A stretch of DNA of 64,000 bases from Pseudomonadota bacterium (GCA_043809315.1 JAZDDX010000016.1:117732-181731); one strand, 5' to 3'; shown: positions 54,783-60,778, numbered from the stretch's first letter. The notes: generated by a model from the letters alone, not told the origin. Made by a program: numbers and translations.

Positions 54783-56093
54783 TTGCGATACATTCCCTCT
54801 GTGACTCGGAAACGACTTCACCTCCTTCTCGTGACAGCCGGCATTGCGGGGGGCGTTCTTCTCTGCTGCCTCGCCAGATACGTCGCTTATCCCTCCGTCT
54901 GCTCCCCGAGACTCCCGGCCAAGAGCAGCTTCGGCACCTCCCCCATCCTGGATGAACCGAGGATCGATCCGAGTTTTCTCCTGGTGCCCGTCATGGATGG
55001 ACGGGTCGTCTATCTGTTGGACCTCTACGGGAGGTCGCTGCACGCCTGGCAAACGGAACTCCCCGTCTTTTATGCCGTGCTCCTGCCCAACGGAAATCTG
55101 CTGGTCGAATTGATTACCGCGTACGACAAGAAGGAGGATGCGTTGGGAGGAAGAACCGGACTCCTGCAGGAACTGACCTGGGATGGCCGTGTGGTCTGGC
55201 AGTACAGGGATCCCAAGCTGCACCACGACATCGACCCCCTTCCGGGCGGACGGGTCGCGGTCCTCCGCTGGGTCAAGGTGCCGTCCGGCATCGCTCGGAA
55301 GATCCGCGGCGGTGTCCCGGGATCGGAACGGGAGGGGGTGATCTGGACGGACCAGATCGCTGAGATCGATCGTGCCGGGAACACCGTCTGGAGTTGGGAC
55401 GCCTACCGACACCTGGATCCGACGCGGGACCAACTCGGCCCGCTGGACCGGCGTCGCGAGTGGACGCACGCCAACTCCATTCAGTACGTTCCGGATCTCG
55501 GCGTTGTTTCCGAACCTTCCCGCAACTTGCGCGGAAAAGACGGATACCTGATCAGCTTTCGCGAAATCAGCACGGTCGCCCTTCTTCGAAGGGACACGGG
55601 AGAGATCGTCTGGCGATCTCCCGAACAACTCTTCGCTCACCAGCACGACGCATCGGTCCTGCCGAACGGGAACATTCTCGTTTTCGACAACGGCTTGCAC
55701 CGCACGCCCGGTCGGGCCCCCTGGTATGGCAGTGCGATCGTGGTGATCGATCCACGATCGAACGCCGTCGTCTGGAAATACAACAGCCACAAAGACTCCT
55801 TCTACGGCGCGCAGCTTTACGCCAGCGTGGTTTCCGGCGCACAACTTCTCGCGAACGGGAATACGCTGATCGCAATCGGCCTGTCCGGTCACTTTCTGGA
55901 AGTGACCCCCGATCGAAAAGTCGTTTGGGATCTGCTCAACCCGTACGGTTCGGCTCCAAACGCTCCCTGGCCGAGAGGGGGCGTTTTCAAGGCGCGCCGA
56001 TATGCCCCTTGGGAGATCGCTTGGCCGGAGAGGATTGGAGATCCACTTCCCTGGTTCGCGAAATGGTGTCGCCGACTCGGAGATTCGAACTAG
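54783..56093 (+). CDS. Arylsulfotransferase (ASST) family protein
   Basis: N-terminal anchor; HHD, HANSI, HQHDA, FDNG, SGAQLLANGNTLI. Confidence 0.8.
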   Translation: MRYIPSVTRKRLHLLLVTAGIAGGVLLCCLARYVAYPSVCSPRLPAKSSFGTSPILDEPRIDPSFLLVPVMDGRVVYLLDLYGRSLHAWQTELPVFYAVLLPNGNLLVELITAYDKKEDALGGRTGLLQELTWDGRVVWQYRDPKLHHDIDPLPGGRVAVLRWVKVPSGIARKIRGGVPGSEREGVIWTDQIAEIDRAGNTVWSWDAYRHLDPTRDQLGPLDRRREWTHANSIQYVPDLGVVSEPSRNLRGKDGYLISFREISTVALLRRDTGEIVWRSPEQLFAHQHDASVLPNGNILVFDNGLHRTPGRAPWYGSAIVVIDPRSNAVVWKYNSHKDSFYGAQLYASVVSGAQLLANGNTLIAIGLSGHFLEVTPDRKVVWDLLNPYGSAPNAPWPRGGVFKARRYAPWEIAWPERIGDPLPWFAKWCRRLGDSN

Positions 56094-56620
56094 CGCGACA
56101 TACGCGGAACGACCGTCCGGAGTCTCCACCCCAGCTCCGCCGATCCGACGGCGACGCCGATCGATCCGGCAAGCCACGCCAAAAGCACGAGATCGAAAGC
56201 GACGAACCCGACTAACCGGAAAAATAGAAGGGAGAAGATTGAAAGCGACGCCCACGGAACGAGCCGGTGTTTCCGGAGAACGCCGACCTCTTCACGGGTG
56301 AGAACCAAAGCTGCGATCAGTGCGCTCGTCCCGAGAAAAAATCCGCCGCAGGCGGCCGTGCAGGCGGCGTGACCGTACTTCATCAGAAATTCGAAGAGGA
56401 TCTCGCTTCGACCCGGCGAAAAGTTGAACTGCGGACAAACCAGAAGCGTCCCGGTCCCGACCACGAGATGGACCCCGAGCGCCTTGCCGAGAACGCGCCC
56501 CCAGGAGGGATGAAGATCCGATTTCACTTTGGAAAAAATCGCCCGGGAGATCCCTTCCGGCGGCCTCTCCTCCGGCGTTTCGAGAAACGCCCCGAACTCT
56601 TCCATCCACCGGTCGGTCAT
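56090..56620 (-). CDS. Putative membrane anti-sigma factor with Cys/His in TM segments
   Basis: ATG 56620 overlaps the ECF stop; H...VCPQF and HAACTAACG; about 4 TMs. Confidence 0.65.
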   Translation of the reverse strand: MTDRWMEEFGAFLETPEERPPEGISRAIFSKVKSDLHPSWGRVLGKALGVHLVVGTGTLLVCPQFNFSPGRSEILFEFLMKYGHAACTAACGGFFLGTSALIAALVLTREEVGVLRKHRLVPWASLSIFSLLFFRLVGFVAFDLVLLAWLAGSIGVAVGSAELGWRLRTVVPRMSR

Positions 56621-57123
56621 TTCGCACCTCGGAGTTTCCGGATCCCGCGCGAGACCAGCTGCCGGACGTTCGACGGCGTCGTCTCGAGCTTCCGCGCGAT
56701 TTCGTCGAACCGGAGATCCTCCCCGTACCGGAGGCGGATCGCCTGGCGCTGCGGCTCGGTGAGAACCTTCCACGCGGGAAGTTCACGCGCCGGTTCTGCC
56801 GAAGCGGTGATCGATTCAGGAACCAATTCAACCGTCGGCTCCTTCCCCGTTTTCCGGAAGTGATCTGTCAGAAGATTCCGTGCGATCGTGAAGAGCCACG
56901 GCGCGAACGGATAGGACGGATCGTACCGATGTCGTCCCTCGTGGAGCTTCAGAAACGCCCCCTGGAAGAGATCCCCCGCCACTTCCCGGTCGGAAAGCCG
57001 GCCGACGAAATATCCGTACAGTCTCCCGGAGTACCTCCGGTACAGCCGTTCGAACGCGGAGAGATCCCCATCCTGGTAGGCGCGCATCAGCTCCTCATCG
57101 GTTGATTGTTCCTGCGCCGCCAA
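56617..57123 (-). CDS. ECF RNA polymerase sigma-70 factor
   Basis: DEELM...GD..AFERLYRRY, DLFQ..F.K, WLFTIARN, region 4 FDEIA...SRG. Confidence 0.92.
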   Translation of the reverse strand: MAAQEQSTDEELMRAYQDGDLSAFERLYRRYSGRLYGYFVGRLSDREVAGDLFQGAFLKLHEGRHRYDPSYPFAPWLFTIARNLLTDHFRKTGKEPTVELVPESITASAEPARELPAWKVLTEPQRQAIRLRYGEDLRFDEIARKLETTPSNVRQLVSRGIRKLRGAK

Positions 57124-57149
57124 ATCGGTTCCTTCTCAAGAACCCATTA

Positions 57150-57374
57150 TCACACATTCTTGTCTTCCTTCGACTTGCAGCAGGGGCAACCGCAGCTCTT
57201 TCCGCAGTTACACACCTTCTTGCAAGAGCAGTCTTTGTGGTTACAGGCCGCTTCATGTTTCAACATACAGGGACATTTCGGCTTTTCGGCCGCCTGCCCC
57301 GCCCCCTCTTGCGCGAACGCCGGAGCGACCGCCAGAAAGGCCAAGACGGTGAGCCAACTGAGTGTTTTTCTCAT
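57150..57374 (-). CDS. Secreted metallothionein-like Cys-rich small protein (74 aa)
   Basis: Signal peptide ending AFA; mature part contains KCPCMLKHEAACNHKDCSCKKVCNCGKSCGCPCCK (11 Cys, 2 His, no aromatics). Confidence 0.8.
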   Translation of the reverse strand: MRKTLSWLTVLAFLAVAPAFAQEGAGQAAEKPKCPCMLKHEAACNHKDCSCKKVCNCGKSCGCPCCKSKEDKNV

Positions 57375-57384
57375 AGTGACGAGT

Positions 57385-57412
57385 AATACGGACCCGGAGA
57401 CCTTTTGTGACA
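57385..57412 (-). promoter_or_regulatory. Putative ECF sigma promoter
   Basis: TGTCAC-N16-CGTATT ending 10 nt before ATG 57374; no SD (near-leaderless). Confidence 0.55.
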
Positions 57413-57447
57413 CCCCCGTTCCTGTGTTAGACCGTTCCCTCAAGGCC

Positions 57448-58143
57448 ATGTCGATTCACGTTTTCGTCGTCGAGGACGAGCCGAAGGTCCAGAAGTTCGT
57501 CCGGAAAGCCCTGGAAGCGGCTGGGATGCAGGTCGAGTCGACCGACAACCTCGACGAGCTGGAGCCGTTCCTGATCCGGGTTCCGTTCGACGTCATCGTT
57601 CTCGACCGTCTTCTCGGCCGCCGGGACTCCCTCCCGATGGTTCCGGAGATCAAGCGGATCTGCCCGGAGGCGAAGGTTCTTTTCTTAAGCGCCCTCGGCG
57701 ATCTCGACCAGCGCGTGTCGGGGCTCGAGATCGGCGCCGACGATTATCTCGCCAAACCGTTCCACGTTACCGAGTTGGTCGCCCGCGTCCGTGCCCTGGC
57801 CCGACGCCCCTCCGCCGAAGAAGGGGGCGAGAACCTCCTCCGTTTCGGCGATCTCGAAATCCGAATGGACACGCAGGAGGTCCGGCGCGGCGGGAGAGCG
57901 GTTCCGCTCACGGCCAAAGAGTTCAAGCTCCTGACGCTTCTCGCCCGGAAGCCGCGGAAGGTTTTCTCCCGCGAGGAGCTTCTGGATCGAGTCTGGGGGG
58001 TCAACGCCGATCCCGGATCGAATGTCGTCGAGGTCACCGTAACCCGCCTCCGCTCCAAGCTGGACGAGGGGGGGAGCAAACCGCTCATCCACACCAAGCG
58101 CGGCAGCGGGTACTGGTTCGGTGAACGCAATGACCAGGAATAA
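57448..58143 (+). CDS. OmpR-family response regulator (CusR/CopR-like)
   Basis: VVEDE, VLD, GADDYLAKPF, LTAKEFKLL, NVVEV...RLRSK, IHTKRGSGY. Confidence 0.92.
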   Translation: MSIHVFVVEDEPKVQKFVRKALEAAGMQVESTDNLDELEPFLIRVPFDVIVLDRLLGRRDSLPMVPEIKRICPEAKVLFLSALGDLDQRVSGLEIGADDYLAKPFHVTELVARVRALARRPSAEEGGENLLRFGDLEIRMDTQEVRRGGRAVPLTAKEFKLLTLLARKPRKVFSREELLDRVWGVNADPGSNVVEVTVTRLRSKLDEGGSKPLIHTKRGSGYWFGERNDQE

Positions 58144-59527
58144 ATCGCTCGTCACACGCCTGACGGGGGGGATGTGGCTCTTCTCCGCGATCAGCTGTGT
58201 CGCCGCCGCGCTTCTTGCCACGTTTCTCATCATCCGGAATTCGGAACTCCAGGCAAAAGACCGGATCAAAGCGGAGGAGGCGAACCTTGTCTCCTTAGGT
58301 CTGATCGATCTGATCTCGCTCAACGACTTCAAGGAGTTGGTGCCGCGGATCCCGGAAACGTTGCAAGGGGGGGAAGGGTTGGATGAGGTTATCCGGATCT
58401 ACGAACCGCCCGGGAAGCTCCTCTTCACCAACGTGAAGTCCCCCGAGATCGCCCGAGCCAAGGTCCCTCGCGCAAAGGTTGTCGATAAGGGGTTCTACGA
58501 GATCGAAGGAAAAACCCACCACTACCTCGCGCTATTGCGCAGCTATCAGGCGTATGACGGCGACACGCTCTGGATCGAGATCGTGACCCCCAGGACTTCC
58601 GCCATCGCGGTTCTCCAGCAGATCATGCTTCCTTTCCTTCTCGCTTTAACCCTCCTTCTGATCCTCTCGTACGTCATCGCCCGAATCGTGACACGGAAGG
58701 CGCTGATGCCGCTCCAATCGATGGGGAGGCAGATGGACCATCTCGACGTCACGCAGTTCAAGGCGTGGGAACCGTTTGCCGTCGCCGAGCAGCCGAAAGA
58801 GTTCCAGCCGATTCTGGGGAAGGTGAACGAGCTGATCGCACGGATCCAGAACGCCTTCTTGAAGTTCCACCGCCTCGGCCAGTTCGTCGCGCACGAAGTT
58901 CGAACGCCGCTCACCGTGATCCAGGGGGAGATCGAGAACGCTCTCGCCACGCCGACGGCAACCCCAGAGGAGTACCGCGAGACGCTTACGAGCTGCATGG
59001 GAGAGGTTGCCCGGATCGACGAGATCGTCGGAACGGTTCTGCGGGTCGCTAAGGCGGACGCCGAGATTCGGCCGTATGTCCCAGAGACGGTCGACCTCGG
59101 GGCGTTTCTGGGAGAGTTGGGACCCAAATTGGAAAAATACACGGGACGAAAGATCCGGCTCTCCCCCGGGGAGAGTGCGCCCCTTTTCGCCGACCGCGAG
59201 TTGATCGGGCTCCTCGTCAGCAACCTGGTCCAGAACGTGGCCAAGCACACGCCGGCCGGAACCGCGACTGAGATCCGCTGGTCGAAGCGGGGGGAGAACG
59301 AAACGGAGCTCGAAATCCTGGATCGGGGGCCTGGGCTCCCACCGGATATCTTATCGGTCGCCAATTCGGACCAGATCGGGAACGAAACCCTCGGCATCGG
59401 CCTCACTCTTTGCAAACAGATCGCCCAGATCAGTCACCTGAAGCTCGAGTTCGAAAACCGGCCGGAAGGGGGCCTCCTGGTCCGGATGATCGTCCCGACC
59501 GCCCAGCCGAACATGACGAAAATGTAA
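58130..59527 (+). CDS. Sensor histidine kinase (CusS-like architecture)
   Basis: Two TMs, periplasmic domain, VAHEVRTPL, NLVQNVAKHT, DRGPG, GIGL. Confidence 0.9.
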   Translation: MTRNKSLVTRLTGGMWLFSAISCVAAALLATFLIIRNSELQAKDRIKAEEANLVSLGLIDLISLNDFKELVPRIPETLQGGEGLDEVIRIYEPPGKLLFTNVKSPEIARAKVPRAKVVDKGFYEIEGKTHHYLALLRSYQAYDGDTLWIEIVTPRTSAIAVLQQIMLPFLLALTLLLILSYVIARIVTRKALMPLQSMGRQMDHLDVTQFKAWEPFAVAEQPKEFQPILGKVNELIARIQNAFLKFHRLGQFVAHEVRTPLTVIQGEIENALATPTATPEEYRETLTSCMGEVARIDEIVGTVLRVAKADAEIRPYVPETVDLGAFLGELGPKLEKYTGRKIRLSPGESAPLFADRELIGLLVSNLVQNVAKHTPAGTATEIRWSKRGENETELEILDRGPGLPPDILSVANSDQIGNETLGIGLTLCKQIAQISHLKLEFENRPEGGLLVRMIVPTAQPNMTKM

Positions 59528-59539
59528 TGAAGCTGTCAT
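59513..59539 (+). promoter_or_regulatory. CusR/CopR-type binding box
   Basis: ATGACGAAAATGTAAT-GAAGC-TGTCAT resembles the cop/cus box TGACA-N4-TGTAAT/TGTCAT; upstream of the 59637 gene. Confidence 0.65.
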
Positions 59540-59636
59540 CCGCGGGTCACCCGCTGGGCCGATACTGATCTCGTGAACGCGGAAGGGGATTCCCCCGAGC
59601 GTTCGAAACCAAAACTGAAAATTAGGAGATCACACA

Positions 59637-59981
59637 ATGAAACGCACACTCATCGGAATGGCACTCTTGGTTCCCGCCCTTTGCTTCGCAGGGAACACGG
59701 TTACCGCCGCCAACCCGACCCATGCGAAATCGCATGTCGTCGCGAAGAAAGTGGAAGCCAGCAAGAAGGCCGAGACTGCAATGACCAAAGACATCAACCT
59801 GACGGGCGGCACCGAAGCCAACCGGATGGAGATCGAAAAGATCGCCAAAGAGGCCGGCGCTACCAGCGCGAGCTTCGATGCGAAGACCGGCACACTGAAG
59901 GTCAGCGCGAAGAGCTTCGACGAAGCGAAGTTCTTAGGCTCCGTCGAGAAGGCCCTCCCGGGCGTCTCGCTCAAGAAGTAA
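59637..59981 (+). CDS. Secreted small protein with HMA-like fold pattern lacking CxxC
   Basis: SD AGGAG; signal peptide; INLTGGTEANRMEIEK...ASFDAKTGTLKV...VEKA resembles the HMA beta-alpha-beta-beta-alpha-beta pattern. Confidence 0.6.
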   Translation: MKRTLIGMALLVPALCFAGNTVTAANPTHAKSHVVAKKVEASKKAETAMTKDINLTGGTEANRMEIEKIAKEAGATSASFDAKTGTLKVSAKSFDEAKFLGSVEKALPGVSLKK

Positions 59982-60000
59982 CTGCTGAGTTGAAGTAGTC

Positions 60001-60038
60001 AAAAAAGGGGACCTGCCGGGCGGCGGGTCCCCTTTTTG
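60001..60038 (+). terminator. Intrinsic terminator (bidirectional form)
   Basis: AAAAAAGGGGACCTGCC-GGGC-GGCGGGTCCCCTTTTT. Confidence 0.88.
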
Positions 60039-60096: not shown

Positions 60097-60173
60097 GGGC
60101 CATTAGCTCAGCTGGATAGAGCATCGGGCTTCGAACCCGAGGGTCGGCGGTTCGAATCCGTCATGGCCCACCA
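60097..60173 (+). tRNA. tRNA-Arg(TCG)
   Basis: GGGCCAT...ATGGCCC-A-CCA; anticodon arm TCGGG-CTTCGAA-CCCGA. Confidence 0.95.
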
Positions 60174-60176
60174 CAA

Positions 60177-60261
60177 GCCGCCGTGGTGGAATTGGCAGAC
60201 ACGCCAGGCTTAGGACCTGGTGGGGCAACCCGTGGGGGTTCGAGTCCCTCCGGCGGCACCA
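60177..60261 (+). tRNA. tRNA-Leu(TAG)
   Basis: GCCGCCG...CGGCGGC-A-CCA; CCAGG-CTTAGGA-CCTGG; long variable arm. Confidence 0.95.
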
Positions 60262-60277
60262 TAAAATGTTGGATAAG

Positions 60278-60778
60278 ATGACCTCGAAACTCTCACTGAT
60301 CCTTACGATTTTGGCGCTCCTCCCATGGCTCACGGCGGCAGAAGCGGAGGAATCGATCGCGGGTCACTTCTATGCCACCGCGTTCATTTCGAGCACTCCC
60401 GGCTATCTGACAAATCAAGGTCACCTCGAAGGGTGGCAGCGGGATTATTCCCCCGGCGTCAGCGTCGGATACAACTGGACCGACGAATGGGCGTTCGGCC
60501 TCAACCTCTCCCCGAACTTCATCCGCGACCGTTACGACAGCCTGGGGGTGATTCCGGGGGCCTACTGGAGCTTTAACTCGTTCCTGTTCGCCGCATTTCA
60601 ACTCTATGTTCCGGTCCAACCAACGGTCGATTTCGGCATCGAACCGGGCATCGGTGCCTACACGGATTTCGGCCATGGATTCAGCCCGTTCGTGGAGTTC
60701 GACGTCTTGAGCATCTTCGGACGGGAGAAACCGGATCTCGGTTTCATCGCCATCCTGGGGTTGGAAAAGGAGTTCTGA
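60278..60778 (+). CDS. Small outer-membrane beta-barrel-like protein
   Basis: Signal peptide, alternating aromatic/Gly strands, C-terminal Phe (LGLEKEF). Confidence 0.65.
   Translation: MTSKLSLILTILALLPWLTAAEAEESIAGHFYATAFISSTPGYLTNQGHLEGWQRDYSPGVSVGYNWTDEWAFGLNLSPNFIRDRYDSLGVIPGAYWSFNSFLFAAFQLYVPVQPTVDFGIEPGIGAYTDFGHGFSPFVEFDVLSIFGREKPDLGFIAILGLEKEF

Follow-up and report, generated by a model that had tools for sequence, protein, structure and literature searches.

A locus in a 64,000-nucleotide stretch of DNA from a Pseudomonadota bacterium (GCA_043809315.1, JAZDDX010000016.1:117732-181731; the window, in whose coordinates positions are given) raises the question of whether two divergent operons, each with a membrane-bound sensor-like protein and a small secreted protein, make up one envelope metal-stress system, as the first-pass annotation had proposed. 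Rather than one system, the region from 56090 to 60038 holds two separable modules set back to back. Module 1 (56090-57412, minus strand) comprises a promoter of the extracytoplasmic function (ECF) type, a gene for a Cys-rich secreted mini-protein, a sigma factor gene and a gene for a membrane protein, in this order. Module 2, on the plus strand, comprises genes for a response regulator and a sensor histidine kinase, a repeat box, and a gene for a secreted 114-residue protein (p114) that ends in a terminator. The start codons of the two operons are 73 nt apart. As had been stated from the outset, no efflux pump or P-type ATPase is encoded in the locus. The genome (G000) is available as an assembly of 2.42 Mb in 44 contigs, 96% complete. 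We consider it fairly probable that these are two independent envelope-signalling modules, one an autoregulated ECF switch with a Cys-rich output and the other a separate pathway of kinase, regulator and p114.

The core of module 1 is formed by the sigma factor gene (56617-57123, minus strand; 168 amino acids) and the membrane protein gene behind it (56090-56620, minus strand; 176 amino acids), whose ATG overlaps the sigma stop codon (ATGA). The sigma factor is a member of the ECF (group IV) family, being small and having sigma-2 and sigma-4 regions only; these match Pfam Sigma70_r2 (E 1.5e-15) and Sigma70_r4 (E 9e-12), the NCBIfam model TIGR02937 gives 91.3 bits against a cut-off of 42.9, and the identity to relatives is 38-50%. 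For the membrane protein, neither Pfam nor NCBIfam has a matching model, and 13 relatives lack any consistent Pfam family. A family profile of 13 sequences retrieved 685 clusters (50% identity), of which 227 reached E<=1e-30 and nearly all had 170-190 amino acids, and placed the family in 150 of 301 sampled Bdellovibrionota genomes as well as in 8 of 17 genomes of the small GTDB phylum to which the window itself belongs. The sigma gene lies directly upstream of its partner in all eight same-order loci and, according to custom hidden Markov models (HMMs), in 34 of the 39 further loci with a called partner open reading frame (ORF); with tblastn, sigma was found in 40 of 43 loci. One protein in the representative library (P0141, 328 amino acids) has weak sigma-2 and sigma-4 matches in its N-terminal part and the domain of the membrane-protein family at residues 154-322, and is either a natural sigma-partner fusion or a frameshifted gene call. 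This context, namely the stop/start overlap, the conserved adjacency and the one fused form, suggests that the membrane protein is a putative anti-sigma factor. No description of this sigma/membrane-partner system was found in the literature. Elsewhere in G000, a 57-residue remnant of a second anti-sigma C-terminus was observed on contig C24 (15807-15977; L020:5808-5978, minus strand), with 60% protein and 71% DNA identity; neither a sigma gene nor an N-terminal part adjoins it, which suggests a decayed paralogue. A shorter anti-sigma fragment lies at a contig end (C4:2-91).

The residues kept in this family point to a possible sensing site. All 39 Bdellovibrionota homologues compared keep C62, Q64, C87, C91, G92 and W149, and 29 of them keep H51 as well; in 13 close homologues the stretches C62-P-Q-F65, C87 and C91-G92 are invariant; the residues that the first-pass annotation had read as H/CPQ/HAACTAAC are all present and conserved. 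In an AlphaFold model built on 127 sequences (predicted local distance difference test score, pLDDT, 94), two N-terminal helices (3-14 and 22-36) precede four long hydrophobic helices (40-61, 84-106, 121-137 and 144-175), taken as membrane helices. C62 ends the first transmembrane helix (TM1), C87 and C91 open the second (TM2), and these Cys at the helix ends share one face. Arg and Lys abound in the loop 107-120 and at the C-terminus; an N-in topology is therefore predicted, in which the three Cys would lie at the periplasmic face of the membrane. A search of the PDB with the model gave no fold match (best E 0.9).

The promoter of module 1 lies at 57385-57412 on the minus strand and reads TGTCACAAA-N13-CGTATT (full element, TGTCACAAAAGGTCTCCGGGTCCGTATT); it contains the TGTCAC-N16-CGTA element noticed at first. 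The motif TGTCACAAA-N13-CGTA(A/T)T also precedes the sigma gene in relatives, where the divergent operon has a copy of its own in front, in many cases set back to back with that of sigma. The 2.42-Mb assembly of G000 has a single copy of the strict motif, in front of the Cys-rich ORF. A slightly relaxed form was matched 70 times in the 51 loci (725 kb), with few exceptions at the sigma operon or its neighbour, where about three would be expected by chance from uniform-composition arithmetic. In the window, the ATG of the Cys-rich gene stands 10 nt past CGTATT, and in same-family relatives the sigma ATG stands 6-7 nt past CGTA. The transcript is probably leaderless or near-leaderless, because this ATG follows the -10 element closely and has no Shine-Dalgarno sequence.

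To see what the promoter may control in relatives, genes that follow the motif or adjoin the sigma-partner pair were identified by Pfam scans and custom HMMs. First come pumps of the resistance-nodulation-division (RND) family. An outer membrane efflux protein (OEP), a CusB-like membrane fusion protein (MFP) with an HMBD domain and an RND protein stand beside the pair in all seven same-order loci scanned, and an eighth same-order locus (L018) holds the same proteins as L016 by its ORF listing. An HMBD protein, an MFP and an RND protein adjoin the pair in L032, and an RND protein with an OEP does so in 12 of 39 further loci. Second, L016 has two cation diffusion facilitator (CDF) transporters, and a multicopper oxidase with a Tat signal (L095:1783-3075) lies about 3.4 kb from the sigma pair with the ECF motif 34 nt upstream. 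Third, the motif precedes genes for Haem_bd proteins, an HMBD protein, a DUF3347 protein and small HMA/MerP-like and MerT-like proteins. A divergent, motif-driven operon shared by many Bdellovibrio-type genomes (for example L035:5768-7332 and L120:8159-9479) encodes a beta-barrel-like protein of 210 amino acids, a MerP-like HMA protein and a MerT-like membrane protein with a CC motif. L088:5812-6303, L091:5836-6336, L098:8261-8758 and L108:8200-8670 each encode a secreted protein of about 160 amino acids that begins with a His-rich stretch (HGGEDHS) and contains a Haem_bd domain (PF14376); in several genomes such a gene is the first motif-driven one ahead of the RND operon. In one relative (G002), a lipoprotein-like protein of 154 amino acids with 24 Met (L013:7822-8286) is encoded directly after the anti-sigma gene and looks like a Met-rich periplasmic metal binder. 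Two neighbours of 688 and 742 amino acids are a pyrophosphatase and an isocitrate dehydrogenase, and were set aside as unrelated.

Comparison across these loci strongly supports a link between module 1 and metal stress, which had been claimed for this operon: the same promoter and pair stand beside RND pumps of the heavy-metal efflux (HME) type, multicopper oxidase, HMA/MerT-like and CDF genes. Multicopper oxidase, CusB-type and HMBD proteins and P-type ATPases probably point to copper, and the CDF and Mer-like neighbours fit other thiophilic metals. The RND TM4 signature did not resolve the metal class of the pumps. Alternatively, the signal for module 1 may be thiol-reactive oxidants or redox stress of the envelope, as has been proposed for anti-sigmas of the NrsF/OsrA type; the Cys-rich protein would then serve as a sacrificial periplasmic thiol buffer or as a structural peptide rich in disulfides. 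According to the model, the conserved Cys face the periplasm, haem-binding cytochrome-like proteins lead several of the motif-driven operons, and, in the accessible portions of two reports, ECF16 is described as responding to both heavy metal and oxidative stress through periplasmic Cys (PMC3511200, PMC7826278), which also speaks against a purely metal-directed switch. However, the motif-preceded neighbours mostly handle metals (HMBD-bearing MFP with RND, multicopper oxidase, HMA/MerT-like, CDF), and no catalase, peroxiredoxin or Msr gene was seen among the scanned targets. We regard redox sensing as unlikely.

The first gene behind the promoter is an ORF call at 57150-57374 (minus strand) for a protein of 74 amino acids, in which a signal-peptide-like N-terminus ending in AFA is followed by a mature part of about 53 residues with 11 Cys, mostly arranged as CxC. 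The protein shares with metallothioneins of the BmtA/SmtA type the high content of Cys in CxC/CC motifs, and neither it nor any of five analogues matches a metallothionein family model in Pfam or NCBIfam. The analogues came from a blind scan for small signal-peptide proteins with at least six Cys: such proteins, with 9-10 Cys, are encoded at most 2.5 kb from the pair in 5 of 49 other loci, and none is encoded in 403 kb of farther flanks. All five genes have their own promoter copy 31-75 nt upstream together with a ribosome-binding site; one of them directly follows the anti-sigma gene, with its promoter copy inside the 3′ end of the latter. The notion that a small Cys-rich secreted protein, and not a pump, is under control of the switch is strengthened by these five further promoter-bearing mini-proteins next to the pair. 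An alignment of the six proteins has six invariant Cys columns, with 25-38% identity to the window protein. In the ESM Atlas, the nearest clusters are auto-named metallothionein at 0.86-0.87, which lies under the bar of 0.9 and serves as a lead only.

The 74-codon ORF might, however, not encode a functional metal binder at all; it might be a chance leader ORF, or a secreted disulfide-rich peptide with another role, such as signalling or antagonism. An open frame of this length is not rare at 60% GC by our own estimate, and the Atlas model of the protein has a very low pLDDT (0.43). No homologue was found, a word-index search returning only the protein itself and a metagenome scan none. A profile of the five analogues misses the window ORF under the default composition correction of HMMER; with the correction off, the ORF ranks first of 32,698 six-frame ORFs (E 2.9e-5). 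Because the match appears only with the correction off, the Cys-rich likeness may be compositional or convergent, and homology is not established. On the other side stand the signal-peptide-like N-terminus with 11 Cys in CxC pairs, an ATG at the place past the -10 element where relatives put their first start codon, a GC content at third codon positions (GC3, 0.69) that exceeds those at first and second positions (GC1, 0.47; GC2, 0.51), and the five analogous genes with a promoter copy each. We judge a non-metal ORF improbable and retain the protein as a candidate metal binder. Metagenome matches to it were rejected as compositional, consisting of signal-peptide matches and of a low-complexity Cys/Ser/Lys-rich marine protein. 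The latter type is seen in L047:3761-4195 on a low-GC marine contig, a secreted protein of 144 amino acids that shares the CCKSKEDK end with the window protein, probably for compositional reasons.

For module 1, the steps of sigma binding, induction and metal binding that we infer would run as follows. With its two N-terminal cytoplasmic helices, the membrane protein would tether sigma to the membrane, and C62, C87 and C91, with Q64 and often H51, would form the sensing site at the periplasmic edge of TM1 and TM2. Once the thiols are bound or modified by a thiophilic metal, most likely copper, sigma would be set free to start transcription at TGTCACAAA-N13-CGTA(A/T)T. Among relatives, the targets of this promoter would be the sigma operon together with CusCBA-like RND pumps, multicopper oxidase, MerP/MerT-like genes and Cys-rich mini-proteins. 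In G000 the predicted regulon is the sigma operon itself, because the motif was found once; the Sec-exported 11-Cys protein would then act as a periplasmic metal sponge. Elsewhere in G000, contig C11 encodes one CPC-type P-type ATPase with an HMBD domain, and the ECF motif is absent from the stretch examined around that gene; no orthologue of the OEP of the relatives' pumps was found in G000, and MFP matches were only weak. A bolder form of this explanation, which we hold only tentatively and rate as somewhat short of probable, is that the membrane protein represents a new one-component class of intramembrane metal sensor/anti-sigma that binds Cu(I) or another thiophilic metal, that the mini-proteins form an unrecognised family of Sec-exported periplasmic metallothioneins, and that the regulon of G000 has been reduced to sensor and sponge, sequestration replacing efflux.

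The divergent arrangement invites the idea of one integrated system, in which anti-sigma and kinase are two inputs that jointly control two small secreted proteins. The short distance between the start codons would suit it, both outputs are small and secreted and resemble metal proteins, and the best NCBIfam models of the regulator and the kinase are heavy-metal subfamilies. Yet no homologue of the regulator, the kinase or p114 was found within about 7 kb of the sigma pair in any of 51 other loci; in a same-family genome (G003) that has both modules, the regulator-kinase-p114 triad adjoins unrelated genes on contig C7 and the sigma pair is on contig C3; and no ECF motif precedes p114, as no direct-repeat box precedes the Cys-rich gene. 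Joint control is therefore highly improbable, and the union of the two operons in the first-pass annotation does not survive these counts. Conservation of the neighbourhood, which had been named as a check of that proposal, was borne out in part: the linkage of sigma and partner is recurrent, but the two-component genes are never near the pair in the 51 other loci. Module 2 is accordingly treated as a separate unit below.

Module 2 starts with a response regulator of the OmpR/PhoB class (57448-58143, plus strand; 231 amino acids; Response_reg and Trans_reg_C), which is followed by a sensor histidine kinase with a periplasmic sensor domain (58121-59527, plus strand; 468 amino acids; HisKA and HATPase_c). 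Only the core of the kinase matches PDB sequences. The best NCBIfam model is TIGR01387 for the regulator (178.7 bits, below the cut-off of 279.2) and TIGR01386 for the kinase (132.9 bits, below the cut-off of 292.55), and no His, Met or Cys ligand shared by the sensor domains of the two kinases (G000 and G003) was seen by eye. The designation of the pair as CusRS-like thus stands as far as the best-scoring models are of heavy-metal type, and falls short in that the scores lie far below the cut-offs and no shared sensor ligand was seen. The triad recurs intact in G003, with identities of 59% for the regulator, 47% for the kinase and 44% for the p114 core. A family search for p114 in 301 genomes gave only nine weak matches, none of them beside a kinase.

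The kinase and p114 genes are separated by a spacer of 109 nt. Three direct repeats in an 11-bp phase, TGTAAT-N5-TGTCAT-N5-GGTCAC (59523-59550, plus strand), form a candidate regulator site, for which the first-pass label of a cop/cus-like box is tentative, and this box is unique in G000, so that each of the two motifs scanned for in the genome has a single occurrence there. The spacer of G003 carries TGTAAT, CTTCAT and CGTCAT in the same register. A -10-like hexamer, GATACT (59561-59566, plus strand), was read by eye 21 nt past the second repeat, and TACATT stands at the same distance in G003; a sigma-70 consensus scan found no full promoter in the spacer, and GATACT may serve as the -10 element of p114. 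A hairpin, GCGGG-TCA-CCCGC (59541-59556), was observed just past the kinase stop codon; it overlaps the third repeat and has no T run, and a metatranscriptome contig crosses it to 59606.

p114 (59637-59981, plus strand), whose transcript would be closed by an intrinsic terminator with a 16-pair stem and a following T run (60002-60037, plus strand), consists of a signal peptide, a disordered linker and an HMA-like domain (residues about 47-114). Every element expected of this operon, from regulator to terminator, was found, and the HMA-like fold of the Cys-less secreted protein is supported by its predicted model and by fold searches. In the model, the strands 49-56, 77-81 and 86-91 and the helices 60-72 and 96-106, all with pLDDT >90, follow a beta-alpha-beta-beta-alpha-beta order. 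The top Foldseek matches are CopZ, MerP and ATP7B domains (E about 2e-3). With an all-against-all structure aligner (VIA), HMA-type domains fill 19 of the top 20 rows at Z 8.7-6.8, the best match having a Z of 8.7, near the level that the tool calls common, with a root-mean-square deviation (rmsd) of 2.1 A over 66 residues. The Pfam HMA model matches neither p114 (E<=0.1) nor anything else in G000; in p114, GGTEANR replaces the GMxCxxC loop of HMA domains, and the mature part has no Cys.

These features leave room for a Cpx- or Bae-like module 2 that responds to envelope stress in general, with p114 as a periplasmic accessory protein or chaperone that has no metal role. p114 matches the Spy model NF007769 weakly (26.6 bits, cut-off 174), it has no Cys, His or Met ligand motifs, no conserved ligands were seen in the kinase sensor domain, and no metal transporter linked to the triad was seen in either genome. 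In contrast, the fold of p114 is alpha/beta and HMA-like rather than all-helical as in the Spy/CpxP type, and the best NCBIfam families of regulator and kinase are of heavy-metal kind. Assignment of p114 to the Spy/CpxP chaperone family itself was rejected, on the model cut-off and on the fold. We hold a general envelope-stress role to be a real possibility, though somewhat less than an even one. In the proposed explanation, module 2 is a regulator and a periplasm-sensing kinase whose predicted sole target is the p114 gene, which the regulator would reach by binding the three 11-bp-phased repeats; its cue may be metal or metal-related envelope stress.

Together with the isolation of the Cys-rich protein and the dual response of ECF16 given above, several observations weigh against two modules with metal-directed outputs. 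From locus to locus the sigma pair has different neighbours (RND, CDF, Mer-like, multicopper oxidase), which therefore do not single out one metal, and at some loci, for example L033, L087, L099 and L103, no recognisable metal gene was seen. Thiolate metal sites are unusual in the oxidising periplasm. In module 2, regulator and kinase do not reach the cut-offs of the heavy-metal subfamilies (CusRS/CopRS/CzcRS), although these are their best-scoring models, and p114 has no canonical ligand motif of any kind. About 0.7 chance matches to the repeats are expected per genome by our own arithmetic, and therefore the repeat argument rests on position and on the single orthologous spacer.

The surroundings of the locus were also recorded. 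An arylsulfotransferase-like gene (54783-56093, plus strand) converges on the anti-sigma gene, the stop codons overlapping by 4 nt (56090-56093), and no terminator was found between the two. Past p114, tRNA-Arg(TCG) and tRNA-Leu(TAG) lie 3 nt apart in the stretch 60097-60778, followed by a gene for a secreted protein of 170 amino acids with a weak outer-membrane beta-barrel match, and then by tig-clpP-clpX. Sequencing runs matched the locus by small shares only; contigs from one groundwater metatranscriptome are 100% identical to 56958-57158 and 59391-59606. The first stretch spans the 5′ part of sigma and 35 nt upstream, and the second the 3′ end of the kinase and 79 nt of the spacer. They give a weak hint of expression, and such contigs from RNA libraries may be DNA, carry no transcript ends and are uninformative for stretches that they do not cover.

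To our knowledge, metal-responsive ECF systems are known from a few models only, namely Cnr, CarQ, CorE and SigF/NrsF. The locus points to another type, with a distinct putative anti-sigma family that lies outside Pfam and NCBIfam and occurs in about half of the sampled Bdellovibrionota genomes. What is new here is this undescribed family, a clean promoter and the recurrent exported Cys-rich outputs; the functional steps that link them are those we infer above. The promoter is sharply defined, which makes the regulon readable from genome sequence, and the exported Cys-rich mini-proteins are flagged as regulated outputs that, if they bind metal, would bring buffering of the metallothionein kind into the periplasm. 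The compact set of promoter, sigma and anti-sigma could also serve as an orthogonal metal-responsive switch.

Known systems share single features with the locus. Small periplasmic metal-buffering proteins under a metal-responsive regulator are represented by PcoE and SilE, which are Met/His-rich and belong with CusRS/SilRS/PcoRS, and Csp1 is an exported Cys-rich Cu(I) store built as a four-helix bundle. The output of module 1 differs from these in being a CxC-rich peptide of about 53 residues under ECF control. The HMA domains of MerP and CopZ have the same fold as p114, with an rmsd of about 2 A over 61-70 residues, and MerP is also exported; they carry the GMxCxxC motif, whereas p114 has neither this motif nor a mature Cys nor a Pfam HMA match.

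As to the promoter, ECF41 sigma factors use almost the same -35 element (TGTCACA), a similar spacer and a -10 element that reads CGTx; in the part of the report drawn on here this -35 is given as specific for ECF41, together with a -10 of the CGTC type (PMC3426412). By the same portion of that source, ECF41 sigma factors lack an anti-sigma and have a regulatory extension fused at the C-terminus (PMC3426412), whereas here sigma ends right after sigma-4 at residue 168 and a membrane partner follows. The main text and the part of the supplement consulted of the ECF reclassification paper contain no mention of Bdellovibrio and no group that joins this promoter, a four-helix partner and RND context; later group descriptions may bear on this. 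For Bdellovibrio, the accessible part of one study mentions two RpoE-like sigma factors that lack recognisable anti-sigmas (PMC3464611).

Two systems resemble module 1 as a whole. SigF-NrsF of Caulobacter (ECF16, DUF1109), as far as the portions of the two reports at hand describe it, has a multi-pass anti-sigma encoded just after sigma, Cys that face the periplasm and a response to heavy metals (PMC3511200, PMC7826278), and a conserved periplasmic Cys is stated there to be needed to hold sigma (PMC3511200). The predicted periplasm-facing position of conserved Cys is shared by the window protein. By the same accounts NrsF differs in having six transmembrane helices, two Cys and the promoter GTAACC-N16-CGAA, whereas four helices in the model, three Cys and TGTCACAAA-N13-CGTA are found here. 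The Pfam NrsF model PF06532 has no match in G000 (E<=0.01; the Caulobacter control matched) and none among 13 family members (E<=1). In CnrYXH-CnrCBA of Cupriavidus metallidurans (ECF20; PMC6851896), the ECF sigma drives its own operon and an adjacent operon for RND heavy-metal efflux from paired promoters, an arrangement that relatives of the locus match. Cnr differs in that a single-pass anti-sigma (CnrY) works with a separate periplasmic His/Met sensor (CnrX), in place of which one four-helix protein with three invariant Cys is found here, and no CnrX-like third conserved regulatory gene was seen in the scanned loci; in G000, furthermore, the pump is absent from the locus and the output is a secreted Cys-rich protein. 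Module 1 thus resembles both CnrYXH and SigF-NrsF but is a member of neither, as the NrsF model fails, the helix number differs and no CnrX-like sensor is seen.

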